Of a stretch of 17,444 nt of DNA, positions 270 to 14,572 are shown piece by piece. The notes below the pieces were generated by a model. It did not search any database, was not told the origin of the DNA, and worked only from the letters and a program-made list of their open reading frames with translations. The stretch comes from Deltaproteobacteria bacterium (lineage in GTDB: Bacteria > Myxococcota_A > Polyangia > Nannocystales > Nannocystaceae). Position 1 is the stretch's first letter. Every line of letters begins with the position of its first letter. Location: the NCBI GenBank assembly GCA_022601155.1, contig JAHZJA010000309.1, forward strand, positions 1 to 17,444, given 5' to 3'. A program made the position numbers and the translations under genes.

Positions 270-1106
270 TCACGCGTCGGCTTCGGGGTCGGGCGCGTCC
301 AAGACGTCGCCGTGGCGCAGGAGGAAGATGAGCAGCAGCAGCACCCCGGCCACCAGGGCGACGTCGGCCACGTTGAACGTGGGCCACGCCTTGCCCTTCC
401 AATAGAAGAGCCGGATGAAGTCCACGACCCCGTGGCGCATCTCTCCGCCGACCTCCGCCATGCGGAAGAACCGGTCGTGGAGGTTACCCAGCGCTCCCGA
501 GGCCACCATTGCAATCGCGACGAAGGCCGAGCCAAAGCGTGTGGGCAGGTTCCGGGCCAGGTGCGCCATGTACAGCAGCGCGAGCACGGTGATGCCGATG
601 AACAGCATCCGGCTCCAGGAGGCGTCGCGCAGCAGGCTGAAGGCCGAGCCGGTGTTGAACCCAAACTCCAGGTAGGCCCAGCCCTCGATGAGCATCCGGC
701 CGGGTTGGTCCTTGAGGTTGTCCCAGGCCCACTGCTTGGTGACCAGGTCGAGCGCGAGCAGCACCCCGGTGACCACGGCCACCATGATCAGTCGGCTGGC
801 GCGGGAGGGTCCGTCCGGGATCACCACTGGCGGCGGGCTCGTGTCGGCGCCAGCTTCGTCGTTGGCGGCAGCTTCGTTGGCGCCAGCTTCGTCGTCGGCA
901 GCTTCGTTGGCGGCAGCTTCGTCGTCGGCAGCTTCGTCGGCACCGGTCGCTTCGTCGTCCGCAGCCGCGTTGGCGCCAGCTTCGTCGGCACCGGTCGCAT
1001 CGTCGCTCGTGGCATCGCCCACGGTGTCTTGCGCAGCCGCGGAGTCGGGCGGCACGGGAGCGTCGGAGTCGGCGTCGGGCTCGGCGTTGCGATCGTCTTC
1101 GGCCAT
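270..1106 (-). CDS. lspA: Lipoprotein signal peptidase (signal peptidase II); the conserved core is about 270..824 and the N-terminal ~95 aa acidic repeat extension is uncertain
   Basis: ORF 270..1106(-) starts at an ATG at 1106..1104. The C-terminal ~180 aa carry the LspA hallmarks: LLALDLVTKQW, GFNTGSAFSLL (the FNxGxAFS box) and PTFNVADVALVAG (the FNxAD catalytic Asp box). There are four hydrophobic segments. The N-terminal part is Ala/Asp/Glu low complexity encoded by a 15-nt tandem repeat. In-frame alternative GTG starts at 827 and 824 would give a normal-length LspA. Confidence 0.85.
   Translation of the reverse strand: MAEDDRNAEPDADSDAPVPPDSAAAQDTVGDATSDDATGADEAGANAAADDEATGADEAADDEAAANEAADDEAGANEAAANDEAGADTSPPPVVIPDGPSRASRLIMVAVVTGVLLALDLVTKQWAWDNLKDQPGRMLIEGWAYLEFGFNTGSAFSLLRDASWSRMLFIGITVLALLYMAHLARNLPTRFGSAFVAIAMVASGALGNLHDRFFRMAEVGGEMRHGVVDFIRLFYWKGKAWPTFNVADVALVAGVLLLLIFLLRHGDVLDAPDPEADA
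852..998. repeat. Imperfect tandem repeat, mostly 15-nt units (agcttcgtcgtcggc / agcttcgttggcggc / agcttcgttggcgcc), inside the lspA 5' region
   Basis: Read directly from the sequence. Consecutive units begin with agcttcg at about 852, 870, 885, 900, 915 and 930. An exact 21-nt copy, agcttcgtcggcaccggtcgc, occurs at 930..950 and again at 978..998. On the minus strand the repeat encodes A-[AD]-[DN]-E-A pentapeptides in the lspA frame and T-K-L-P-type repeats in the +1 frame. Confidence 0.9.
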
Positions 1107-1175: not shown

Positions 1176-2039
1176 TCAGGGCGCGGGGCGTGCCGTGCGG
1201 CGCAGCCCCCAAACGCCCAACACGACCATGCCCAGGGCGATGAGCTGCGAGACCGACAGCAGCAATGGCTGATCGGCGGCCAGGCCCAGCGCGCGTGCAA
1301 CGGGGGGGATCGGGAGGTCGAACACCATGCCTCGCGAGGGATCACCGCGGAACATCTCCACCGTGAAGCGCAGCAGGCCATAGCCCAGCGCATAGCGGCT
1401 GGCCTGCCTCCATGGTGTCTCGACACCGCGTTGGCGTCGAATCCACACCAGCACGATGAACAGCAGCGCCAGCCCGCCCGCTTCGTACAGCTGGGTCGGG
1501 TGCAGGGGCACCGTGTGGCCACCGACGCGCGCGACCTCGCCCGCGCCGTAGGCCACCGCTTCGGCGTCGAAACGAATCGACCAGGCGACATGCGTGGGCG
1601 CGCCCCAGCAGCAGCCGGCCATCAGACACCCGACGCGACCGAACGCGTGGCCCAGCGGCATCCAGGTGGCCCCGGCATCGCAGACCTCGGAAAACCGCGT
1701 CTCGTAGCGGCGTGCGAGCCAGGCAAAGCCGCCGACGATCGCGAGCATCGAGCCAAAGAACACGAACCCGGTGGTGTCCAGTGCCCACAGTCGAGAGGGA
1801 TCGTCGATGTACGGGCCGGGGGCCGTGAGCACGTGCAGCACGCGGCCCCCGATGGCCGCGCCGAAGATCAGCACGAGGTAGAGGTCGAGCAACATGGTGC
1901 CCGGCCGCTCGCGACCCATGCCCCGCTGGCGCAGCTCCCAGTACGCGCCGGGCATCGCGATCGCCCCGCCGAGCAAGATGAGCGTGCCGTAGGCGTTGAA
2001 GGGACCGAGCCCGGGCAGCTCGAACAGGACGGGGTTCAT
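1176..2039 (-). CDS. lgt: Prolipoprotein (phosphatidylglycerol) diacylglyceryl transferase
   Basis: The track ORF 1176..2096(-) begins at a TTG with a Pro-rich 19-aa leader. The ATG at 2039..2037 gives MNPVLFELPGLGPFNAYGTLILLGG, a typical Lgt N-terminus. Family motifs are present: GHAFGRVGCLMAGCCWG (the GRxGCxxxGCCxG box), HPTQLYEA, and multiple TM segments. Confidence 0.9.
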   Translation of the reverse strand: MNPVLFELPGLGPFNAYGTLILLGGAIAMPGAYWELRQRGMGRERPGTMLLDLYLVLIFGAAIGGRVLHVLTAPGPYIDDPSRLWALDTTGFVFFGSMLAIVGGFAWLARRYETRFSEVCDAGATWMPLGHAFGRVGCLMAGCCWGAPTHVAWSIRFDAEAVAYGAGEVARVGGHTVPLHPTQLYEAGGLALLFIVLVWIRRQRGVETPWRQASRYALGYGLLRFTVEMFRGDPSRGMVFDLPIPPVARALGLAADQPLLLSVSQLIALGMVVLGVWGLRRTARPAP

Positions 2040-2129
2040 GGTGGGGCCGGACTCGGGCCGCGGCCGAGGCGGTGCCGCGGTGGGTGAGCCCGGCAACGAT
2101 AGCGTGACGCCGCCCTGGGGGCGATCGGC

Positions 2130-3958: not shown

Positions 3959-5701
3959 TCACTGGGGTTTGGGGGCCGCGAGCACGTCGTCGAGCATCGC
4001 GCCCACCGTCGAGCCGCTCAGCTGCGGAGAGGTGGCGATGATCGTGCCGTTTTCGTCCAGCAGCACCGCGTACGGGATGCCGTAGATTCCAAACAGTCCG
4101 CTGGCGGTCGCGAAGTCCATGTGCCCGTTGCGCCACGGCATCGGGAACCGGTCCTTGCGGAACTCGACGACCTCTTCGGTGCCCTTGTCGACGGAGATGC
4201 TCAGGATGTCGAACTGTCGGTCGCCTCGCTTGGTCTTGCGCTTGGTCTTGTACTGGTCGTAGGCGGCGTGCAGCTCGTCCATCTCGGCGATGCATGGCTT
4301 GCACCACGTCGCCCATACATCGACCAGCATCACCTTACCGGTCAGGCTCTCGTTGTTGATCGTCGTGGCCTTGGCCCCCGGGCGCGACTCGATGCTCTCG
4401 ATCTCGAAGGCGGGCATCGTGCCGCCCTTCTTCACGGCGCGGTCTGGGTCCATCTGCTTGGCGATGAAGAAGTACGGGGTGGTGGAAAACCGCTGGTTCT
4501 GCAGCCGATCGAAGGCGTCGCGGATGCCCGCGGTGTCGCCCTTGGTGCTGGCTTGGTCCAGCCGGCCAAAGAGGATCTGCGCGGCGACCATCGGGGGTAG
4601 CTCCTCGTCGAGCATCGTGTCCAGGCGTTGGCGATCACCCGCGTCATCGGAGAGCTTCACTGCGGTGACGAGCGCGTCGGAGAACATCTCCCAGCCGGGG
4701 TGGGTGGCCGACAGCTCGCCGATGAGCTCCTTGGCACGGGCACGGTCGCTGTCGGAGGCTTGGTCGGCCTCGTAGGGGCCGAGGCCGAAATAGGCGGCCA
4801 GAGCCATTTGCCGCACGTTGGGGTCGCTCTCGCCCTCGAGCACCTGCACCAACTCGGCGCGGGCGGGGCTCCAGTCGTACCCCTCATAGAGCGCCTGTGC
4901 CTCCTGCCGATTGCCCGGCTTGTGCTCGGTCAGCAGGTCGCGGAAGCCCTGCTGAAGCTCATCGGCGCGGTCGTCCAGGGCGACGAGTCGAGCCGAGGCC
5001 CCGCTGGGATCGGCAAAGGTCAGCGAACGCTGCGCGTCGGAGGGCGGGAGCTGGGACGGGTCGACGGTGACCCGAGTGCGACCCGATGCCGTGGCCAGGA
5101 TCGTGCGGTAGTCACCGCCACCGTCGTACTCGACGGTGGACGAGCCCGGGGCGTTGGTCGAGCGACCTCCCGCGTGGCCGGAGATCTGAACCCAGATCTG
5201 AGGGGCGTCGGTCTCGACGTCGACGCTGTAGATCCCATCCTCACCTTTTTCGAGGGACTTGCGCTCGGGAGGAGCCTTGTCCGGGGCGCCGGTCCACACC
5301 AGCGCATTGATCGCCTCGATCGGCTCGGTGCGCTCGTACGTGCCCAGCTTGATGTCGACGCGAAGCGGCTTCGGTCCCAGGACGACGGCGAGCTTCGTCT
5401 GTGCGTGGTCGATGCCCGTGATCTCGAGCCGGGCCAGTCCTTGACGCTCGGCCGACAACGAGAACGCACCGTCGGGACCGACGAGGGTCTCGATCGCGTC
5501 GTCGTCCTCGCCGCCCAGCACACGGACGTGGGCCACCTTCAGCGGTGCGCCATCGTGCCCCACGACGGTGCCTTCGATCGTGCTGATGGCCGGGGCGGGG
5601 GTCGAGGGGATCGCCGTCTGGGGCGTTGTCGTCGGTTCCGGATCGCCCTTGGAACACGAGGTCGAGAGGATGACGGCGAGTAGCAGCAGGGAATGGCGCA
5701 T
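3959..5701 (-). CDS. Lipoprotein with a C-terminal TlpA/ResA-like thioredoxin domain (thiol:disulfide oxidoreductase) and a large N-terminal region of unknown function
   Basis: The track ORF 3959..5743(-) starts at a TTG. The ATG at 5701..5699 gives MRHSLLLLAVILSTSC, a signal peptide plus lipobox (Cys codon at 5656..5654). The C-terminus has GKVMLVDVWATWCKPCIAEMDEL, with the CxxC motif WCKPC at 4292..4306, as in TlpA/redoxin-family proteins. Near the N-terminus, IEGTVVGHDGAPLKVAHVRVLG looks like a carboxypeptidase-regulatory-like beta-sandwich. Confidence 0.8.
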   Translation of the reverse strand: MRHSLLLLAVILSTSCSKGDPEPTTTPQTAIPSTPAPAISTIEGTVVGHDGAPLKVAHVRVLGGEDDDAIETLVGPDGAFSLSAERQGLARLEITGIDHAQTKLAVVLGPKPLRVDIKLGTYERTEPIEAINALVWTGAPDKAPPERKSLEKGEDGIYSVDVETDAPQIWVQISGHAGGRSTNAPGSSTVEYDGGGDYRTILATASGRTRVTVDPSQLPPSDAQRSLTFADPSGASARLVALDDRADELQQGFRDLLTEHKPGNRQEAQALYEGYDWSPARAELVQVLEGESDPNVRQMALAAYFGLGPYEADQASDSDRARAKELIGELSATHPGWEMFSDALVTAVKLSDDAGDRQRLDTMLDEELPPMVAAQILFGRLDQASTKGDTAGIRDAFDRLQNQRFSTTPYFFIAKQMDPDRAVKKGGTMPAFEIESIESRPGAKATTINNESLTGKVMLVDVWATWCKPCIAEMDELHAAYDQYKTKRKTKRGDRQFDILSISVDKGTEEVVEFRKDRFPMPWRNGHMDFATASGLFGIYGIPYAVLLDENGTIIATSPQLSGSTVGAMLDDVLAAPKPQ

Positions 5702-6400: not shown

Positions 6401-7525
6401 TCAGCGGGCCGACCCGGCGCCCGCGGGGTCGATCCCCAGCCGCCGCAGGACCTCGTCGGCGATGGCGATCGATGAGGTCAGCCCCGGGCTCTCGATGCCG
6501 AACAGGTTGCACAGGCCGGGGATGCCGTGGTCTCGCGGACCGTCGATGCGAAAGTCGGCGGCGGGCTGGCCCGGCCCCACGATCTTGGCTCGAATGCCGG
6601 CGTAGGCGGGCTGGAGCATCGACACGTCGACCTGCGGCCAGTAGCGCGCTGCCGCCTGGGCAAAGTGTCGAGCCCGCCCGGGATCGACGGTGTAGTCGAT
6701 GTGATCGACCCACTGCTGATCCGGGCCCAGACGAACACCGCCCCCTATGTCGAGGGTGACGTGGATGCCCAGGCTGTGGGTGTCGGGAACGGGGTAGACC
6801 AGGTGCGACAGCGCAGGCCGACCCGCCACGGAGAAGTAGCTGCCCTTGAGCAGATGGGAGGTGGGGATGTGGTCGGGGGACAGGCCCGCGATCGACTGCG
6901 CCACGGCGGTCGCCCCGAGGCCCGCGGCATTGACCAGCAGCTGGCAGCGGACGGTGGTCGAGCCCGCGTGGACATCGTTACCGTCCTCGCGCGGAACGTC
7001 GGACTCCAACGGGGTGGCCAGGGCGAGCGAGGCGCCCAGGTCGTGGGCCTCGGACCACAACGCACGCAGGAGCCCCTCGCTGTCTACGATGGCCGTGGAG
7101 GGGGACCACAGCCCGGCCACGGCCACCACTCGGGGCTCGATCGCGGTGATGTCGTGGGCATCGAGCGGGCGCAGATCGTCGACGCCGTTGTCGTGGGCAC
7201 GCGCGCGCAGGGCAGCCAAGGTGGCGCGCTGGGCCTCATCGGTGGCGACGACCAGCTTGCCGATCGGGCGATACCCCACGCCCCGGGAGGCGCAGTAGCG
7301 CGCGAGGGCATGGCGGCCCTCTACGCAGAGCCGGGCCTTGAGGCTCCCGGGCGGGTAGTACAGGCCCGCATGCACCACCTCGCTGTTGCGAGAGGAACCG
7401 TGCTGCCCCATCCCCCGTTCGCGCTCGATCAAGACCACTTCGCGCCCAGCTCGGGCCAGGGCGCGGGCCACCGCCACACCCACCACTCCGGCGCCGACCA
7501 CCAGCGCCTGCACCCGCTCGGGCAT
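6401..7525 (-). CDS. FAD-dependent oxidoreductase, L-2-hydroxyglutarate oxidase/dehydrogenase (LhgO)-like
   Basis: ORF 6401..7576(-) has its track start at a GTG. The ATG at 7525..7523 gives MPERVQALVVGAGVVGVAVARALA (FAD GxGxxG), and alternative ATGs lie at 7537 and 7534. SSRNSEVVHAGLYYPPGSLKA and the C-terminal FGIESPGLTSSIAIADEV are characteristic of the LhgO/L2HGDH-type subfamily of DAO-family flavoproteins. Confidence 0.75.
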   Translation of the reverse strand: MPERVQALVVGAGVVGVAVARALARAGREVVLIERERGMGQHGSSRNSEVVHAGLYYPPGSLKARLCVEGRHALARYCASRGVGYRPIGKLVVATDEAQRATLAALRARAHDNGVDDLRPLDAHDITAIEPRVVAVAGLWSPSTAIVDSEGLLRALWSEAHDLGASLALATPLESDVPREDGNDVHAGSTTVRCQLLVNAAGLGATAVAQSIAGLSPDHIPTSHLLKGSYFSVAGRPALSHLVYPVPDTHSLGIHVTLDIGGGVRLGPDQQWVDHIDYTVDPGRARHFAQAAARYWPQVDVSMLQPAYAGIRAKIVGPGQPAADFRIDGPRDHGIPGLCNLFGIESPGLTSSIAIADEVLRRLGIDPAGAGSAR

Positions 7526-7620
7526 CACCGCCATCATAACCGTGCGAGTGGGACCCGGCCGCGTGGTACAAACCACACCGGGACACTCGCTAGTTGGAAA
7601 CGCCGACGCCGGATCCCGAG

Positions 7621-10600
7621 ATGACCGTCCAGACGGTCGACACGCTCGGACACGCCATCGACGGGGCCCTGCACTGGGATGCCATCGAGGAGCATCGTGC
7701 GCTGGCCCAGATCGAGCAGAAGATGTTCGCGCGCGCGCGCGATCCGGTGCGCCTGTCTCGGTATCTGCTGCTGCGCCCCCTCGGCTCGGGCGGCACGGGG
7801 GTGGTCTACGACGGCTACGATCCCGAGCTGGCGCGGCGGGTGGCGGTCAAGGTGTTGCGAGCGGGCCGCAAGAACCTCGAGTCGGTGGTGCGGGCCCGCG
7901 CCCGGTTCGTTCGCGAGGCGCAATCGATCGCTCGGCTGTCGCATCCCAACGTGATCGCCGTCCACGACGTGGGGACCTATGCCCCCGAGGACCTCAGTCG
8001 CGAGGCCCGTCAGGGGCTCGAGCACGGCAGCGACGACGCGGGCGTGTTCATCGTGATGGAGCTGGTCGACGGCCATGACGCCAGCACGTGGCTCGAGCGT
8101 GAGCGCCGGGGTTGGCGTGAGGTCCTCGATGTGTTCCTGGCGGCCGGGCAGGGCCTGGCCGCGGCCCATGCCGCAGGAATCGTCCACCGCGATTTCAAGC
8201 CGGGTAACGTCCTCGTGGGTGAGGACGGCCGGGTCAAGGTGGTGGACTTCGGGCTGGCCGTGACCTATGGCGGCAGCGTGTCCGAGTCGCCGACCGGTGA
8301 CGTCGACACCCTCACCCCGGTGCCCTCGGAGTTGGCCAGCCTGACCAGCTCCAGCGCGGGTGAGGACGAGCCGCCGCTCGACAAGCTCACCCGGACGGGC
8401 ACCCTGCTGGGAACTCCCGCGTACATGGCTCCCGAGCAGCACCGGGGCGAGCCTGCCGATCAAAAAGCCGATCAGTTCGCGTTTTGTGCCTCGCTGTATC
8501 GTGGGCTCTACGGCCGGCACGCGTTCGCTGGGCGTCAGGTCGAGGCGCTGTTCGCCAGCAAGATCGAGGGCAAGGTCCGTCCTCCGCCCGACGACTCGCG
8601 TGTGCCCGCGTGGGTCCATCGGGTGGTGATGCGGGGCCTGGCGACCGAAGCGGACGATCGGTTCGCGAGCATGGAGGAGCTGCTGCGCATGCTTCGGGCC
8701 GACCCGGCGCTGCGCTGGCGCCGTGCGGCTCGGCTGGTGGCCATTCCGCTGGCGGTAGGCGCACTGGGCTACGCGGGCTTCGTGGCGACCCGCCCCGGTC
8801 GCGTGGTGGTGAGCACGGGGGCCGCAGGTCGGCCCGTGCCTGGCGTGCAGGTCTACGTGGACGAGCACGAGCTGCCGGGCGGACGTGGTGAGGTGGCGGC
8901 GGGGCTGCACCGCGTGCGAGCGGTCGCGCCCGCGTACCAGCCCGTGGAGACGGTGGTCGACGTCAGTCGCGGGGGCGTGCACGAGGTCGCGCTCGAGCTT
9001 CAGCACGAGCAGGGCGTGTTCGATCTCGAGCTGGAGCCGGGGGGGGGCCGGGTGCTGGTCGACGGGGTCGACTACGGCTCTCGACTGACCAACCTGCGGG
9101 TCGACACCGGTCCCCACGAGATCGTCGCGCGGCACGTGGGCTATGTGGACGAGCGACTGTCGTGGGACGCGGTCGCAGGGGAGACCAAGCGCGGGTTCGT
9201 GGCGCTGCGCAAGGCGCTGGCCTGGTCGCGGCCGGCCTCGGGAACGTTCCTGTTCAATACCTGGCTGGGCGACATCAACGGCGATGGGCTCGACGATCTG
9301 GTCGCGCGGCGGTTCACCACACTGACCGCGTACGATCCGTGGAACGACCGCGAGCGTTGGCGCATCGTGCTGGGCCTCAGCCCGTTTTTTCGTACGTGTG
9401 ATGTCGACGGCGACGGAACCCTCGACGTGGTGACCCTGCGCGCGGAGAAGACGGGCGTGGCGCTTCAGGCCTACTCGGGCCGAACGCAGCAACGCCGGCC
9501 CGACCCGAGCTGGTCGGTGCCCTTGCCTTCGGTCGCGTTCGATACGGAGCTGGAGCACCCGCCCGGAGACCTCACCTGCATCCCGCGGGCTGGCGGGGGT
9601 GATGATCTGGGGGTGGTCCTGACCTCGGGTCGAGTGATGCGAGCGGCGGGTGGCGACGGCTCGATCATGTGGTCGCAGATGCAGGACGAGCCTGCGGTCC
9701 ACGTGCTGATGCTGGAGCCGGGCTCCGCACAGCCGAGCCTCGTGGCGGTGGGACAGCGCGGTGTTCGTGCCCATGCAGCAGACGACGGGCATCTGTTGTG
9801 GTCTCAGCCGCTTCAGGTGGCGCGCATGGATGCCTCGGGCGAGATCGCTCCACAGTGGCACACGGCCAGCGAACGCATCCACAACGAAGGCCAAGCCTGG
9901 GCGGTCGCGGCCGACATCGGGTTCGAGCGCGAGGATGTCTTGGTGCAGGCCGCCGGCGAGGGGGCATCGCCGTACGCCCTGGTGGCGCTGTCGGGCATCG
10001 ACGGCCACGAGCTGTGGCGAGCGGACAGCGCTCACATGGTCAACCTCGCGGCCGGCCGACTGGGTGATGCCGATGGCGACGGCGGGTTGGACGTGTTGCT
10101 GCCGCGTGGAGAAGGCCCCGACACCATCAACCTGGTCTCGGGTCGGAGCGGTCGGACCTTGTGGTCACGACCGGCGGTTCGGTTGGCCCGGATGCTCGCG
10201 ACCGCCCCCGAGCTGTTGGTGGTGGAGATCGATGGCAATGCCGTCGTGCTGGTCGACGGCGCGACCGGGAGGCAGGTCGCCAACACCCAGGTACCGTCGC
10301 CGCTGATGGCGACGGCGGCGGTCTACGACTGGGATGGTGATGCACGCCTCGATGTCTTACTGGGCACGCGTGATGGCGTGCTGTGGGCATTCGATACCCG
10401 GCTGCGTCGGCTGGGGACGGTACCGCTGACGATCCCGCTCAGTAGGATCTCGGCCGATCGTGACGCCAACCACGACGGCTTTGCGGACATCTTGCTGCAG
10501 GCACGTGGCCCCGCGGTGTTGGTGGGCCCCAAGGTTCGCTGGGAGCGACGTCCGCTCGATGCGATTCGGGCCACCCCGGTGGTGGCCGATCTCGATGGTG

Positions 10601-11673
10601 ACCGGCAGCCCGAGGTGGCGCTGTTCGGCACGCTGGCCAGCAGCAATCGGCTCGAGATCCTCGATGCCCGCACCGGGTTGGTGGAGGCCTCCAGCACCGC
10701 GTCGGAGACCCCCATCGTGATTCGTCCCCCGGCCGTGATTCGGGCCGCGCAAGGGGCGGACTTGCTCGCGGTCGGAGGCGGGATCAAGCGGTACTCGGGT
10801 CGGGATGCTTCGCTGCTGGGTTCGTTCGCCACGCGCACGGCCTACGCCAGTCCGACGGTGGCCGACCTCGATGGCGATGGTCGTGACGAGATCCTCATGG
10901 TCAGCTGGCAGGACCCGGGGGTCCTGTACGTCATCGACGTGGAGACGCTCGAAGCTCGGTGGAGCCGCGAGCTCGGTCCCACCGGGTCGTTCGATGCACC
11001 CTACGTCGGCGACGTCGACAAGGACGGCGAGCTCGATCTGTTGATCGCCACACTGGGGGGGAAGGTGCTGTGCTTGTCCCGTGATGGCACCCCCAAGTGG
11101 GAGGCCGAGATTGGCGGTCGGCTCAACCATCGTCCGACGGTGGCCGACCTCGACGCCGATGGCACCCAGGAGGTGATGGTGGCGCCCCAAGACGACACCG
11201 ACCCACTGGTGGTGCTGCGGGGTACAGATGGCGTGGAGATTGCGCGGTGGCCTGGGGTCGCCAGTCGCCGGACGCGTCCGCTGGCCAGCGATCTCGATGG
11301 CGACGGGCGACCCGAGATCTTGACGTCCAGCGAGGACCGCGGCCTCATCAGCCTCGCGGGGGACGGGAGCATTCGCTGGCGCTACGGTTTCGCGGATGCG
11401 GACGGCTTGCAGCCGGCCGGGACCGCATCGCCCGTGCTGGCCGATCTCGACCGTGACGGGCGTCCGGAGCTCATCGCGGGCTTCGAGGACGGCTCCCTTC
11501 ATGTCGTCGACGCCCGCGATGGGACCCTGGTGTGGCGGTTCAGTATCGGCCGCGAGGAGATCGAGGCCTCGCCCGCCGTGGCCGATGTCGACGGCGACGG
11601 CGATCTCGAGGTGGTCATCGCCGGGCATGACCGGCAGCTGCTGTGCCTGGATCACCGCCCCGGTGGCGGCTAG
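7621..11673 (+). CDS. Receptor-type Ser/Thr protein kinase: cytoplasmic Hanks kinase domain, one TM segment, two PEGA-like domains, and a large extracytoplasmic FG-GAP/PQQ-like beta-propeller repeat region
   Basis: The track ORF starts at a TTG at 7594. The first ATG is at 7621, and another in-frame ATG lies at 7723. Kinase motifs:
- G-loop LGSGGTGVV
- VAVK Lys codon at 7849..7851
- HRDFKPGN, with HRD at 8185..8193
- DFG at 8245..8253
- GTPAYMAPE, with APE at 8428..8436
The TM segment is AARLVAIPLAVGALGYAGFVA. After it come repeated DxDxDG-type loops alternating with G..LW strands through to the C-terminus. Confidence 0.9.
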   Translation: MTVQTVDTLGHAIDGALHWDAIEEHRALAQIEQKMFARARDPVRLSRYLLLRPLGSGGTGVVYDGYDPELARRVAVKVLRAGRKNLESVVRARARFVREAQSIARLSHPNVIAVHDVGTYAPEDLSREARQGLEHGSDDAGVFIVMELVDGHDASTWLERERRGWREVLDVFLAAGQGLAAAHAAGIVHRDFKPGNVLVGEDGRVKVVDFGLAVTYGGSVSESPTGDVDTLTPVPSELASLTSSSAGEDEPPLDKLTRTGTLLGTPAYMAPEQHRGEPADQKADQFAFCASLYRGLYGRHAFAGRQVEALFASKIEGKVRPPPDDSRVPAWVHRVVMRGLATEADDRFASMEELLRMLRADPALRWRRAARLVAIPLAVGALGYAGFVATRPGRVVVSTGAAGRPVPGVQVYVDEHELPGGRGEVAAGLHRVRAVAPAYQPVETVVDVSRGGVHEVALELQHEQGVFDLELEPGGGRVLVDGVDYGSRLTNLRVDTGPHEIVARHVGYVDERLSWDAVAGETKRGFVALRKALAWSRPASGTFLFNTWLGDINGDGLDDLVARRFTTLTAYDPWNDRERWRIVLGLSPFFRTCDVDGDGTLDVVTLRAEKTGVALQAYSGRTQQRRPDPSWSVPLPSVAFDTELEHPPGDLTCIPRAGGGDDLGVVLTSGRVMRAAGGDGSIMWSQMQDEPAVHVLMLEPGSAQPSLVAVGQRGVRAHAADDGHLLWSQPLQVARMDASGEIAPQWHTASERIHNEGQAWAVAADIGFEREDVLVQAAGEGASPYALVALSGIDGHELWRADSAHMVNLAAGRLGDADGDGGLDVLLPRGEGPDTINLVSGRSGRTLWSRPAVRLARMLATAPELLVVEIDGNAVVLVDGATGRQVANTQVPSPLMATAAVYDWDGDARLDVLLGTRDGVLWAFDTRLRRLGTVPLTIPLSRISADRDANHDGFADILLQARGPAVLVGPKVRWERRPLDAIRATPVVADLDGDRQPEVALFGTLASSNRLEILDARTGLVEASSTASETPIVIRPPAVIRAAQGADLLAVGGGIKRYSGRDASLLGSFATRTAYASPTVADLDGDGRDEILMVSWQDPGVLYVIDVETLEARWSRELGPTGSFDAPYVGDVDKDGELDLLIATLGGKVLCLSRDGTPKWEAEIGGRLNHRPTVADLDADGTQEVMVAPQDDTDPLVVLRGTDGVEIARWPGVASRRTRPLASDLDGDGRPEILTSSEDRGLISLAGDGSIRWRYGFADADGLQPAGTASPVLADLDRDGRPELIAGFEDGSLHVVDARDGTLVWRFSIGREEIEASPAVADVDGDGDLEVVIAGHDRQLLCLDHRPGGG
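7762..8700 (+). other. Protein kinase catalytic domain of the receptor kinase
   Basis: The domain runs from YLLLRPLGSGGTG to about EELLRMLRA and contains all the Hanks subdomain motifs listed for the CDS. The DFG-to-APE segment is unusually long (see findings). Confidence 0.85.
8725..8787 (+). other. Single predicted transmembrane segment of the receptor kinase
   Basis: A hydrophobic stretch, AARLVAIPLAVGALGYAGFVA, is preceded by RWRR (positive-inside). It is the only clearly hydrophobic helix-length segment in the protein. Confidence 0.7.
8797..9213 (+). other. Two PEGA-like beta-sandwich domains directly after the TM segment
   Basis: VQVYVDEHELPGGRGEVAAGLHRVRAVAPAYQPVETVVDV and RVLVDGVDYGSRLTNLRVDTGPHEIVARHVGYVDERLSWDAV both fit the PEGA pattern (v.vDG...G.....l..G.h.v.....Gy......v). 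This assignment is by eye only. Confidence 0.5.
9268..11652 (+). repeat. Array of about 12 clear (plus about 2 degenerate) FG-GAP/PQQ-like blade repeats, coding, inside the kinase gene
   Basis: Recurrent loops:
- GDINGDGLDDLV
- CDVDGDGTLDVV
- GDADGDGGLDVLL
- YDWDGDARLDVLL
- DRDANHDGFADILL
- ADLDGDRQPEVAL
- ADLDGDGRDEILM
- GDVDKDGELDLLI
- ADLDADGTQEVMV
- SDLDGDGRPEILT
- ADLDRDGRPELIA
- ADVDGDGDLEVVI
Each is followed by a D/G-G-x-x-x-W strand (DGHLLWSQ, DGHELWRA, GRTLWSRP, DGVLWAF, GTPKWEAE, GSIRWRYG, GTLVWRFS). At the DNA level the motif GCCGAYCTCGAYGGYGAYGG recurs at 10585, 10861, 11143, 11287, 11440 and 11581, with a variant at 11008. The period over the last six units is about 135-153 nt. 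Confidence 0.8.
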
Positions 11674-11692
11674 GAGTACCTAGCGCCATGGT

Positions 11693-11720
11693 TTGATCCG
11701 CCGCGCTCCCCTGCTATTTT
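11693..11720 (+). promoter_or_regulatory. Candidate sigma70-type promoter for the ECF sigma gene (TTGATC-N16-TATTTT)
   Basis: This is a locally AT-rich patch in a very GC-rich window. TTGATC lies at 11693..11698 and TATTTT at 11715..11720, separated by a 16-nt spacer. A GGGAG Shine-Dalgarno-like element follows at 11735..11739, and then an in-frame GTG at 11750. If the promoter is real, the TTG used by the ORF track (11693) is the -35 box rather than a start codon. Confidence 0.4.
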
Positions 11721-11749
11721 GCGGGCCGGGAAGAGGGAGCGACCACCAC

Positions 11750-12388
11750 GTGGATCCGGATATCGAGCTGTTGGACGCATGGAGGTCGGGGGACAACTCT
11801 GCGGGCTCCAAATTGCTGCGGCGGCACTTCCGAACGCTCTTTCGGTTCTTCCGCAGCAAGGTCACCCAAGGGGTCGAGGATCTGGTTCAGCAGACGATGC
11901 TCGCCTGCGCCGAGGGAGCCCACCGGTTTCGCGGTGACTCCAGCTTCAAGACCTACCTGCTGGCCATCGCGCGCACCCAGCTGCTGATGCACCTGCGCAA
12001 GTACTCGCGCAAGGGCAAGCAGCTCGATCAGCTCGAGTCGTCCATCGCCGACGTGCTCGGCTCGCCGTCGGTGGTGGTCGCGGGCAAAGACGAGCAGAAG
12101 CTCGTGCTCACGGCGTTGCGCCACATCCCCATCGATCTGCAGATCGCAGTGGAGCTGCACTACTGGGAAGAGATGCGGATCGACGACATCGCCGTCGTCA
12201 TCGGCGTGCCCTCGGGTACGGTCAAGAGCCGCCTCAATCGAGCGCGACGGCTGGTCCGGGAGTGGATCCTCAAGGCCGAGGCCTACCCGGCCGCGCTGCG
12301 GGAGACGACCGCGGGCGACGTGGAGAACTGGGCCCGCTCGCTGCGCGAGAAGCTGCTCGAAGACAAGGCCGACGACGCCGAGGGCTGA
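11750..12388 (+). CDS. ECF-family (group 4) sigma-70 RNA polymerase sigma factor
   Basis: The track ORF 11693..12388 starts at a TTG. I prefer the GTG at 11750 (VDPDIELLDAWRSGDNSAGSKLLRRHF), which gives the usual ECF N-terminus and has an upstream GGGAG. Region 2 reads VEDLVQQTMLACAEGAHRFRGDSSFKTYLLAIARTQLL. The region 4.2 HTH reads MRIDDIAVVIGVPSGTVKSRLNRARRLV. About 40 aa of charged C-terminal tail follow region 4. Confidence 0.85.
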   Translation: MDPDIELLDAWRSGDNSAGSKLLRRHFRTLFRFFRSKVTQGVEDLVQQTMLACAEGAHRFRGDSSFKTYLLAIARTQLLMHLRKYSRKGKQLDQLESSIADVLGSPSVVVAGKDEQKLVLTALRHIPIDLQIAVELHYWEEMRIDDIAVVIGVPSGTVKSRLNRARRLVREWILKAEAYPAALRETTAGDVENWARSLREKLLEDKADDAEG

Positions 12389-12439: not shown

Positions 12440-13387
12440 TCACATCGGAAGGGCGCACACCCCGACGTCTTCGTATCCGGGCAGCGGCACCTCGTCGCGG
12501 CTCTCGTACCAAGACTGACAGGTCTGCCCGTCGGGCGCGCCCGTGCACTGGGCATCGCCGGCCGGGTCGGTGATGTCGCAGACCTCGGCGCAGCAGCCCG
12601 CGGAGCCCGTGCAATCGGGGGTCGCAGCTACGCCGAAGCAGATGAGGCCGGGATTGCAGACGTTGATGAACTCGCAAGGGTCGCCGTGGGCACCCATATC
12701 CCCAGAAGCATCGGGAGCGCAGACCCATGAACTCGAGACCGGGTAGCACGCCTGGTCTTGCGGACAGTCTTGTTGGAGTGGGTCACACACGGGCAGGCAC
12801 CACATGACGGCGCTGCCGCCATCGATGGAGCACTGGGTGTCAGGGTCTTCGCACACGGGGTTGCCCCGCGTTCCGGTGCACATCCCCACGCAGGTGCCGG
12901 TGTTGGTCTTGGGATCGACGTCCCAGCACACGGAGCCCAACTCGCAGTCGTCCACGCCGCTGGTGTCAGAGCCTTCGACCATGCAGGGATCCCCGGGCTC
13001 GCCGGGGTTGTCGGCAATGGGGGAGCAGCGTGTGGCGTTCCATGCTCCGCCGCCGTCGTCGGCCCACGGCATGCATTTTTGGCCCTCGGGGCAGTCCTGA
13101 GTGAACAGATCGCACACGAACCCGCCCTGTCCACCGTCGTGCTCGGGGACGAACCCGCCGCTGTCGGTACTGGGATCCAGCGTGGTCCCGAGCGCGCTGG
13201 TGCCAGGGAGCATCGTGGTGTCTGCCCGACCCCCGGTGTCGGTGGTGGTCACCGAACCGGTCGATGCGTCGTGGGTGGTGTTCTCCGCGTCCGCGGAGGT
13301 GTTGGTCTGAGCGGGCTGGACCGCTCCGCATCCACCGAGCGCGAGTGCCACGGACATGACTGCCGTGCGATGGTGGTCCTCGAGCAT
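12440..13387 (-). CDS. Cysteine-rich secreted lipoprotein with a Thr/Ser-rich linker and two tandem homologous Cys-rich domains; function unknown
   Basis: The track ORF 12440..13456(-) starts at a TTG. The ATG at 13387..13385 gives MLEDHHRTAVMSVALALGGC, with the lipobox-like LGGC (Cys codon at 13330..13328). A Thr/Ser/Asp/Gly-rich linker of about 70 aa follows. After that come 26 Cys residues arranged in two related modules starting CDLFTQDCPEGQKC and CDPLQQDCPQDQAC. Confidence 0.7.
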   Translation of the reverse strand: MLEDHHRTAVMSVALALGGCGAVQPAQTNTSADAENTTHDASTGSVTTTDTGGRADTTMLPGTSALGTTLDPSTDSGGFVPEHDGGQGGFVCDLFTQDCPEGQKCMPWADDGGGAWNATRCSPIADNPGEPGDPCMVEGSDTSGVDDCELGSVCWDVDPKTNTGTCVGMCTGTRGNPVCEDPDTQCSIDGGSAVMWCLPVCDPLQQDCPQDQACYPVSSSWVCAPDASGDMGAHGDPCEFINVCNPGLICFGVAATPDCTGSAGCCAEVCDITDPAGDAQCTGAPDGQTCQSWYESRDEVPLPGYEDVGVCALPM

Positions 13388-13783: not shown

Positions 13784-14572
13784 CTACGCATCCGGGGCTC
13801 GATGTCCGTGTCCCATCGACGCGATCTTCATCGCAATCTCATCGGCGTCGTCGTCGGCCACGGCGCGCCGGGCCACCGCCCGGAGCAGCAGCGCCCCCCC
13901 GCCGATCATGATCGCAGGCACCACGTAGATCAGCACGGGTAGCGGTCCCACGCTGAGCGCCAGCCAGGTCTGGCCATCTTGGATGGCGACGGGTGCACAA
14001 AACAGCCACGCATCGTAAAGCCCGTGCATCGCCACCGCAATAGCGAGCCCGCCCCACCACCCCGGGCCACGGCCATCGAAACGGCGACGGGCGGCGAAGT
14101 ACCCCGCCAGCCCCCCCCAGATGGCGTGACCGGGCACCGCGAGGATCGCTCGTCCGATGTACACGGTGAAATATTGCGACAGGCTGTGCGGGAGCAGCAG
14201 CAGGTAGGCGACGTTCTCCACCAGCGCAAAGCCGAGGCCAGCGCGGGCTCCGTAGACGATGCCGTCCATGCGCTCGTCGAACTCGGGACGCCGCCATGCC
14301 ATCAGGTACACCGACGCGAGCTTGGCCGCTTCCTCGGGCAGCGCCGCGATCACGAACGACATGTACAGCGCGCCGCTGTACCCGACACCGGGCCCCATGA
14401 GCTTGAGCAGCTCGCCCACCAAGATGACCGGCAGCGCCGAGATCGATCCGGCCAGAGCCACACGACGGAGCGTGGATCGTGGCTCGGGCCGCTTGGCGTC
14501 CATGCGATCGATGACCGCCATGGCGATGAGCGCGGGGGCAGCCCCCAGTATGACGAGCTCGATCTCCTCCAT
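13784..14572 (-). CDS. prsW: PrsW-family intramembrane glutamic/metallo-protease
   Basis: ORF 13784..14572(-) has an ATG at 14572..14570. It is polytopic. Family motifs: DRMDAKRPEP near the N-terminus, AALPEEAAKL (the EExxK box), GLGFALVENVAY, PGHAIWGGLAGY and AMHGLYDA. Confidence 0.75.
   Translation of the reverse strand: MEEIELVILGAAPALIAMAVIDRMDAKRPEPRSTLRRVALAGSISALPVILVGELLKLMGPGVGYSGALYMSFVIAALPEEAAKLASVYLMAWRRPEFDERMDGIVYGARAGLGFALVENVAYLLLLPHSLSQYFTVYIGRAILAVPGHAIWGGLAGYFAARRRFDGRGPGWWGGLAIAVAMHGLYDAWLFCAPVAIQDGQTWLALSVGPLPVLIYVVPAIMIGGGALLLRAVARRAVADDDADEIAMKIASMGHGHRAPDA

Follow-up and report, generated by a model that had tools for sequence, protein, structure and literature searches.

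Control of extracytoplasmic function (ECF) sigma factors by Ser/Thr kinases has so far been demonstrated for two proteins only, EcfP of Vibrio parahaemolyticus, paired with the kinase PknT, and EcfK of Xanthomonas citri, paired with PknS, both members of group ECF43. This group is defined by an acidic DAED/DxxD motif of region 2.2 that has become uncharged, together with a conserved Thr; the motif reads QTTA in the consensus, STTA in EcfP and QATE in EcfK (PMC13147305, PMC8999054, PMC8103513). The Thr, present in 88% of members, is the phospho-acceptor. EcfK has in vitro phosphosites in its linker (T104, T106, S108 and S110), of which T106 is functionally critical, and direct phosphorylation of an ECF sigma factor by a kinase, linker sites included, thus has precedent (PMC13147305). 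Kinase-associated groups also include ECF59−62, ECF217, ECF267, ECF283 and subgroups of ECF27, ECF40 and ECF210 (Casas-Pastor et al. 2021, PMC7826278). In the kinase-linked groups besides ECF43, which are uncharacterized, a DAED-like acidic motif is retained, so that according to the reviews they must work differently (PMC8999054, PMC7826278). The principle of kinase-linked ECF sigma factors without an anti-sigma gene is thus established, and the recognized groups include some whose acidic patch is intact. Here, we describe a pair of genes of this kind, encoding a receptor kinase and an ECF sigma factor, in a stretch of 17,444 nt (approx. 69% G+C) from a Deltaproteobacteria bacterium of the Nannocystaceae (contig JAHZJA010000309.1), referred to below as the window.

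The kinase and the sigma factor constitute a genuine, conserved two-gene module of marine-type myxobacteria (Nannocystaceae type), without an anti-sigma gene (table 1). An earlier note, made from the DNA alone, had placed the two genes next to each other on the plus strand, and this arrangement was recovered exactly: the kinase gene ends in a TAG codon at 11671−11673 and the sigma gene begins with GTG at 11750, after a gap of 76 nt. The kinase start that it had assumed, ATG 7621, is less secure. The (M)ETPTPDPE peptide and its DNA (window positions 7594−7620) are kept in orthologues, where the start codon is GTG, TTG or ATG, so translation probably begins at TTG 7594, 27 nt upstream. The sigma factor has the ECF (group 4) architecture, with Sigma70_r2 (residues 22−87) and Sigma70_r4_2 (118−167) separated by a short linker and accompanied by no other domain. 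It scores 78.8 bits against TIGR02937 (cut-off 42.9), while no specific NCBIfam family matched it at cut-off. It is 100% identical, with the same start, to a protein from a metagenome-assembled genome (MAG) named ‘Deltaproteobacteria bacterium’, and after this match it is closest to sequences of Nannocystaceae and Myxococcota MAGs and of Paraliomyxa miuraensis. The kinase domain carries the full set of Hanks catalytic motifs, conserved across 43 sigma-adjacent kinases, and a Ser/Thr-rich activation segment of 61 residues; by these motifs, the kinase is catalytically competent. With a hidden Markov model (HMM) built from the six clean C-terminal units of its ectodomain, 14 repeat units were counted in a first pass and 16 in a second, and the repeat region probably forms two β-propellers. 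The ‘roughly 14-blade’ propeller proposed previously was therefore a fair estimate, both counts being taken from sequence repeats.

In all orthologous loci examined (L004−L008, L088 and L089), the kinase gene, with a homologous ectodomain, lies directly upstream of the sigma gene on the same strand, while the other neighbours vary between loci. Identities within the orthologous pairs are 73−89% for the sigma factor and 50−65% for the kinase ectodomain. The loci include those of GCA_039028615, HK-STAS-MYXO-16, P01_E01_bin.52, an SRR6227243 bin and Paraliomyxa miuraensis (sigma tblastn 77−89%). The orthologous kinases are 1340−1407 aa long with the same architecture, and homologues with that architecture span 31−65% identity. 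A sigma gene lies immediately downstream of the kinase homologues P0122 and P0131, whose ectodomains are at least 50% identical; at 43% identity, the homologue in L087 keeps the neighbouring gene for a DAO family flavoprotein, and its contig ends in a Cys-rich open reading frame (ORF) before any sigma gene.

A family-alignment scan of 185,579 species genomes yielded 369 matching stretches, of which the best 79 loci were used; all are from Nannocystaceae/Polyangia, a single genome holding several paralogues. When a profile of the sigma family was run against 1.84 billion representatives of 50%-identity clusters, 1406 matched at E ≤ 1e-30. Six-frame ORFs of the 79 loci were searched with the kinase domain from the window. 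A kinase gene was present no more than 1 kb from the sigma gene in 41 of the 79 loci, in four orientations (kinase then sigma in 20, sigma then kinase in 8, divergent in 7 and convergent in 6). Over the distal flanks of the loci, 27 kinases occur in 880 kb (0.31 per 10 kb), a background from which approximately 6% of loci would be expected to show such adjacency (p ~ 1e-28). When lineages were collapsed at less than 55% sigma identity, 10 of 18 remained kinase-adjacent (p = 2e-8). Whether the adjacency is conserved in relatives, a check proposed in the earlier note, can thus be answered: it is present in all orthologous loci and enriched among the paralogues. Of the refuting outcomes listed in that note, none of those open to testing here was observed.

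Clusters of the sigma factors match clusters of the adjacent kinase domains (Mantel r = 0.82, a value reached by 0 of 2000 permutations; adjusted Rand index 0.66), so the pairs are inherited as units. Deep co-duplication of the two genes was considered and rejected, the signal being weak, with r = 0.19 for pairs below 60% sigma identity. The sensor modules of the partner kinases are unrelated to one another, comprising PEGA with FG-GAP, TPR_12/TPR_10, AAA_16, a tandem kinase or no sensor module. The combination of sigma factor and kinase domain is the constant element among these varied sensors. Functional coupling of the kinase and the sigma factor is well supported by these genomic patterns.

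Some relatives display other arrangements. Paraliomyxa miuraensis encodes a second pair (locus L003, 12646−16354, minus strand) 7 kb from the orthologous one, in which the sigma gene precedes a TPR-kinase gene; this second sigma factor shares the N-terminal motif and the SPS linker with the family, but not the C-terminal tail. In one group of paralogues from Nannocystis and relatives (L015−L021, L025, L030, L031, L038 and L052), the conserved order is kinase (AAA_16), sigma factor and a co-oriented SppA-type signal peptide peptidase of approximately 594 aa.

The earlier note had seen no gene that could encode an anti-sigma factor, and our results agree. As it had described, the preceding gene is divergent and the next is convergent; they were identified here as those of a FAD oxidoreductase and of a Cys-rich secreted protein with no Pfam matches, respectively. 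GC3-based gene calling found no small co-oriented coding ORF beside the pair, and the sole H...C..C match in the six frames of the whole window falls in a non-coding frame near position 1011, which confirms the observation. No classical co-encoded anti-sigma (ASD/ZAS, RskA, FecR and similar) adjoins the sigma gene within the window, and a Pfam scan of 120 non-kinase neighbours of family members revealed no recurrent anti-sigma domain. Conserved neighbours at the kinase-less loci are SppA, SDR, IF-1, an amidohydrolase, a metallophosphoesterase, a sugar kinase and an RlmI-like methyltransferase. SppA, SDR, IF-1, the metallophosphoesterase and the methyltransferase were considered as hidden anti-sigmas and rejected. 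The same applies to the convergent gene in the window, whose Cys-rich secreted product is not conserved at orthologous loci, and to a 197-aa co-oriented gene after the Paraliomyxa sigma gene, which encodes a lipoprotein-like secreted protein.

Region 2.2 of the sigma factor (KVTQGVEDLVQQTML) contains G-V-E-D and VQQ, as the earlier note had read it, with T39 (codon 11864−11866) just upstream. The earlier note had raised ECF43 as a possible group and had pointed to this Thr in the light of the EcfP switch; neither the group nor a phospho-switch at T39 is supported by comparison with 95 family sequences, 44−88% identical to the sigma factor of the window. E43 is acidic in 89 of the 95 (51 Glu, 38 Asp) and D44 in all of them (89 Asp, 6 Glu), so the uncharged motif that defines ECF43 is not present. 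Position 39 is Ser or Thr in just 39 of the 95, being Gly, Asp or Pro in most paralogues, and Thr in only one of the 41 kinase-adjacent paralogues from genomes. Elsewhere in the region, G41 is Gly in 67 of the 95 and Q48 is Gln or Arg in 87 (45 Gln, 42 Arg), while T49 is invariant, at a position where small residues are common in ECF sigma factors. For direct comparison, 94% of EcfK (Q8PF57) was rebuilt from published mass spectrometry (MS) peptides. The window sigma is 26% identical to it by BLASTP (E = 5e-6), and hhalign with the family profile gave a probability of 93.5%; in both alignments, the phospho-Thr51 of EcfK lies opposite E43. PF07638 scores 22.7 bits with the window sigma (cut-off 21.1) versus 87.4 with the rebuilt EcfK. 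The sigma family, which has the N-terminal ELLxAWxxGDxxAG in common with EcfK, is related to the PF07638/ECF43 lineage.

Conserved Ser and Thr residues are found instead in the linker between the two sigma domains and in the C-terminal tail. In the linker, S98 is Ser or Thr in 92 of the 95 sequences, S105 in 94 and S107 in 94, with P106 invariant (95/95). In the tail, T187 is Ser or Thr in 91 (82 Thr, 9 Ser) and W194 is retained in 89. An AlphaFold2 (AF2) model of the sigma factor, made with the 95-sequence alignment, had a pLDDT of 91.9 and a pTM of 0.89; the tail is predicted to form helices at residues 181−189 and 191−211, and pLDDT does not fall below 90 until about residue 200. The top matches of the model in the PDB (Foldseek) are all ECF sigma factors, and the nearest are closed, anti-sigma-bound forms: SigW/RsiW (TM 0.81, rmsd 3.2 Å), CnrH/CnrY (0.75) and EcfG/NepR (0.71), whereas the rmsd to RNA polymerase (RNAP)-bound ECFs is approximately 27 Å. 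The closed state of the model may in part reflect the AF2 training set. A role for the tail as a staple of the closed state is unsupported, since a prediction of residues 1−175 with the same alignment was still closed, with fold and confidence unchanged (pTM 0.88; SigW/RsiW TM 0.84).

How might the kinase act on the sigma factor? The FG-GAP/PEGA ectodomain would sense an envelope or extracellular cue, and the kinase would phosphorylate the sigma factor and thereby set its activity. The acceptor would be S98 or S105-P-S107 in the linker, by analogy with the linker sites of EcfK, or T187 in the tail; the linker residues S98/S105-P106-S107 are the best candidate region. Since charge is already built in at E43-D44, this route would differ from that of EcfP and other ECF43 proteins, in which charge is supplied in region 2.2. 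The identities of the genes, the catalytic motifs, the lack of an anti-sigma gene, the conserved and enriched adjacency and the residue conservation are observations; that the sigma factor is a target of the kinase, that the action is direct, and which residues it involves, we infer. Control by direct phosphorylation is the most economical mechanism and has precedent, and we regard the chances of its being right or wrong as evenly balanced. The phosphorylation-controlled ECF module of the earlier note therefore stands as regards a real kinase and sigma factor, the lack of an anti-sigma gene and the conserved adjacency; its specific mechanism and ECF43 assignment are not supported.

Several observations weigh against control by direct phosphorylation. 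Kinase adjacency is missing in about half of the family loci. S98, S105, S107 and T187 are equally conserved in 18 members with no kinase within at least 3 kb, so these residues may be structural or may be served by unlinked kinases; the idea of a Ser/Thr signature peculiar to kinase-adjacent sigma factors was rejected on this ground. As the acidic pair is retained, there is no sequence sign that the sigma factor is intrinsically inactive. The BLASTP alignment sets T106 and S108 of EcfK opposite E96 and S98, in a register that is tentative at 26% identity. A promoter-like element lies between the two genes (table 1), so they may not be strictly co-transcribed. Finally, four kinase homologues of the same architecture (31−39% ectodomain identity; one assigned to Brocadiia) have no sigma gene within 6 kb. 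Deep conservation of the pairing, seen from the kinase side, was rejected because of these homologues, and the pairing is therefore clade-specific rather than a trait of the kinase architecture.

Some of these points would also fit co-inherited neighbours in which the sigma factor is not a substrate of the kinase. Its activity would then be set by its abundance (through its own promoter, or proteolysis), by an unlinked or unrecognized soluble anti-sigma, or by the C-terminal tail, and the kinase would have other targets or be a member of the sigma regulon itself. Since its acidic patch is intact, the sigma factor could be constitutively competent; a conserved TTGATC-16-TATTTT-like element stands directly 5′ of its gene; and the kinase-less half of the family keeps the tail along with all the conserved Ser and Thr residues. 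Short C-terminal extensions are thought to modulate ECF sigma factors that have no anti-sigma, and soluble anti-sigmas without known domains are possible (PMC7826278). However, an approximately 8-fold enrichment of kinases, in four gene orders and with unrelated sensors, is hard to explain without a functional link, and kinases are the only recurrent candidate regulator among the neighbours. Nor was a shared bipartite (ECF-type) promoter detected above shuffled controls 5′ of 40 representative sigma genes, so there is no sign of autoregulation. We consider this explanation possible but somewhat unlikely.

A further alternative is that the kinase serves as an anti-sigma-like membrane tether, with its N-terminal helix binding the closed sigma factor. 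Release would follow when a signal causes the receptor to autophosphorylate or to be cleaved, the PrsW-family protease encoded nearby being one possible agent of cleavage. The kinase has an amphipathic N-terminal motif, hE..R..hA.h...hF[GAK]R...Ph+hxR[YF], directly before the Gly-rich loop (window 7675−7745, aa ~28−50), which may be a docking element, though a non-specific one. It is present in most sigma-adjacent kinases, regardless of sensor type (kinases of L004−L082), but also in about half of the non-adjacent kinases from the same loci. PknS, too, is extended at its N-terminus by a conserved stretch to which no role has been assigned (PMC13147305). The superposition of the AF2 model on anti-sigma-bound rather than RNAP-bound forms would suit a tether, although AF2 may prefer closed states for the reason given above. 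The PrsW gene lies near the pair in the closest orthologues but is missing from L007, L008 and all paralogue loci, and conservation of all catalytic residues argues that catalysis matters. On balance, a tether is improbable.

A switch of the ECF43/EcfP type, in which region 2.2 would be too uncharged for β′ binding until phosphorylation of T39 restores the charge, fares worse. It draws on the replacement of the first Asp of DAED by G41 and of Glu by Q48 (almost never acidic across the family), on the kinase linkage without an anti-sigma gene, and on the ELLxAWxxGDxxAG motif in common with EcfK and the hhalign match. Yet E43 and D44 are acidic in 94% and 100% of the 95 sequences, T51 of EcfK falls opposite E43 and not T39, Ser or Thr occupies position 39 in just 39 of the 95, and the PF07638 score is far below that of EcfK, whereas ECF43 members typically combine an uncharged DxxD with the Thr (PMC13147305). 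Such a switch is contradicted by the sequence conservation and is very improbable. Chance adjacency in a kinase-rich genome has a negligible probability: myxobacterial genomes do encode hundreds of Hanks kinases, but adjacency in 41 of 79 loci and 10 of 18 collapsed lineages far exceeds the expectation, and orthologues keep the pair while other neighbours change.

Control of ECF sigma factors by kinases could naturally be tested on this module and its family, in which the acidic patch is intact, the invariant acceptor candidates are few (the linker SPS, S98 and T187) and one sigma chassis is combined with a wide variety of sensor kinases. Direct phosphorylation, if shown, would provide a second sigma-licensing mechanism and a set of orthogonal kinase−sigma pairs; if not, this is one more uncharacterized ECF in a kinase-rich genome. 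Carried furthest, the argument would describe a large myxobacterial ECF family with a phospho-switch unlike that of ECF43: a closed sigma factor with its acidic contact present, licensed via S98/S105-P-S107 or T187 by interchangeable sensor kinases (FG-GAP propeller, TPR, STAND-ATPase or tandem kinase), possibly with docking of the N-terminal helix. This full picture is speculative and, as a whole, quite unlikely.

Table 1. Positions of the kinase and sigma genes, their parts and their neighbours in the window.
Feature	Position	Strand	Evidence or remark
lspA (signal peptidase II)	270..827	−	left window end
lgt (prolipoprotein diacylglyceryl transferase)	1176..2096	−	beside lspA
580-aa protein	3959..5701	−	CarboxypepD_reg-like domain and C-terminal thioredoxin-like/redoxin domain
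DAO family, L-2-hydroxyglutarate-oxidase-like flavoprotein gene	6401..7537	−	Pfam DAO 1.2e-58; context, not a demonstrated component
GCGTGGTACAAAC, TGGTAYA-type element	7561..7573	+	in the ~54-nt divergent DAO−kinase spacer; same place in five orthologous loci
Single-pass receptor Hanks-type Ser/Thr kinase, 1359 aa	7594..11673	+	Pfam Pkinase 1.3e-30, PEGA, FG-GAP_3 1.4e-34, PQQ_2
Cytoplasmic kinase domain	7768..8703	+	GSGGTG 64, VAVK 83, HRD 198, DFG 218, APE 279
Transmembrane helix LVAIPLAVGALGYAGFVATRP, aa 381−401	8734..8796	+	sole one predicted; top Kyte−Doolittle window of the protein
Extracytoplasmic sensor: PEGA (417−472), then FG-GAP/PQQ-like repeats with DxDxDG motifs	8842..11670	+	Pfam
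TTGATC-16-TATTTT in the kinase−sigma spacer	11693..11727	+	core CCCCTGCTATTTTGCG at 11708−11723, 27 nt before the sigma start
ECF (group 4) sigma factor, 212 aa	11750..12388	+	Sigma70_r2 2.4e-11, Sigma70_r4_2 3.1e-13
Region 2.2 core G41-V-E43-D44-L-V-Q47-Q48-T49	11870..11896	+	acidic pair kept; Glu of ‘QE’ replaced by Gln
Sigma2−sigma4 linker motif S98-I-A-D-V-L-G-S105-P106-S107	12041..12070	+	conservation in 95 sequences
C-terminal tail after sigma4 (T187...W194-A-x-S-L-R)	12275..12385	+	conserved; two predicted helices
Cys-rich secreted protein gene	12440..13387/13393/13456	−	also Thr/Asp-rich; between sigma and PrsW
PrsW-family intramembrane metalloprotease	13784..14572	−	Pfam PrsW-protease 1.9e-35; 1.4 kb from sigma

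Both spacers around the kinase gene contain conserved elements. Both are similar to −10 regions of the housekeeping type. The one upstream is like an extended −10, possibly that of a promoter for the kinase gene. In the kinase−sigma spacer, the CCCCTGCTATTTTGCG core is identical in L004 and similar in L005, and the sigma gene may be transcribed from the element to which it belongs, as a promoter of the housekeeping type. A scan of positions 7300−12700 for consensus sigma70 promoters called none, both conserved elements included; the sigma element fell below threshold.

Among the neighbouring genes, that of the DAO family flavoprotein lies 5′ of the kinase gene in L004, L005, L006, L008, L087 and L089; its product scores 230 bits against PRK11728 (NCBIfam), under the cut-off of that model. 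In Bacillus, PrsW is the site-1 protease that acts on the anti-sigma RsiW. The PrsW gene of this locus adjoins the sigma gene, or is one gene away, in the closest orthologous loci (L004−L006 and L089). It is absent from L007, L008 and every paralogue locus, and it was rejected as a component of the module because the linkage is confined to the closest orthologues. The Cys-rich gene does not occur at the equivalent position in orthologous loci; homologues are found in L062 and L080, near other sigma factors of the family. Beyond it, farther 3′ of the sigma gene and along with PrsW, is a homocysteine S-methyltransferase gene. The lipoprotein-maturation genes lspA and lgt have no evident connection to the kinase−sigma pair.

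Among known systems, SigW/RsiW/PrsW of Bacillus subtilis resembles this locus in the closed, SigW-type model and in the PrsW-family gene close to the sigma gene, but here both an anti-sigma gene and the HxxxCxxC motif are lacking, and PrsW is linked in the closest orthologues only. With ECF238 (CorE/CorE2, Myxococcus xanthus), the window sigma has in common a myxobacterial host, the lack of an anti-sigma gene and, following sigma4, a short conserved stretch with a possible modulating effect on activity (PMC7826278, PMC4937300). Its tail differs in having the conserved T187 and W194-A-x-S-L-R in place of a Cys-rich metal-binding motif, and its AF2 model is closed with or without the tail. The other kinase-linked ECF groups, by published description, combine linkage to a Ser/Thr kinase, usually with no anti-sigma gene, and an acidic motif that is kept, as is found here. 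Their named representatives come from Planctomycetes and Actinobacteria, whereas the present family belongs to Nannocystaceae/Polyangia.

As in the ECF43 pairs EcfP/PknT and EcfK/PknS, an ECF sigma factor without an anti-sigma is encoded beside a transmembrane Hanks kinase; the N-terminal ELLxAWxxGDxxAG is found in EcfK too, and S98 aligns with S108 among the EcfK linker phosphosites. In contrast to the uncharged QTTA/STTA of ECF43, region 2.2 keeps E43-D44, with Glu at the position of the phospho-Thr, and two further traits of the family are the invariant SPS motif of its linker and its conserved tail. The sensor in the window consists of PEGA and FG-GAP propellers, unlike those of the ECF43 partners, while several of the paralogous partner kinases are, like PknS, TPR kinases.

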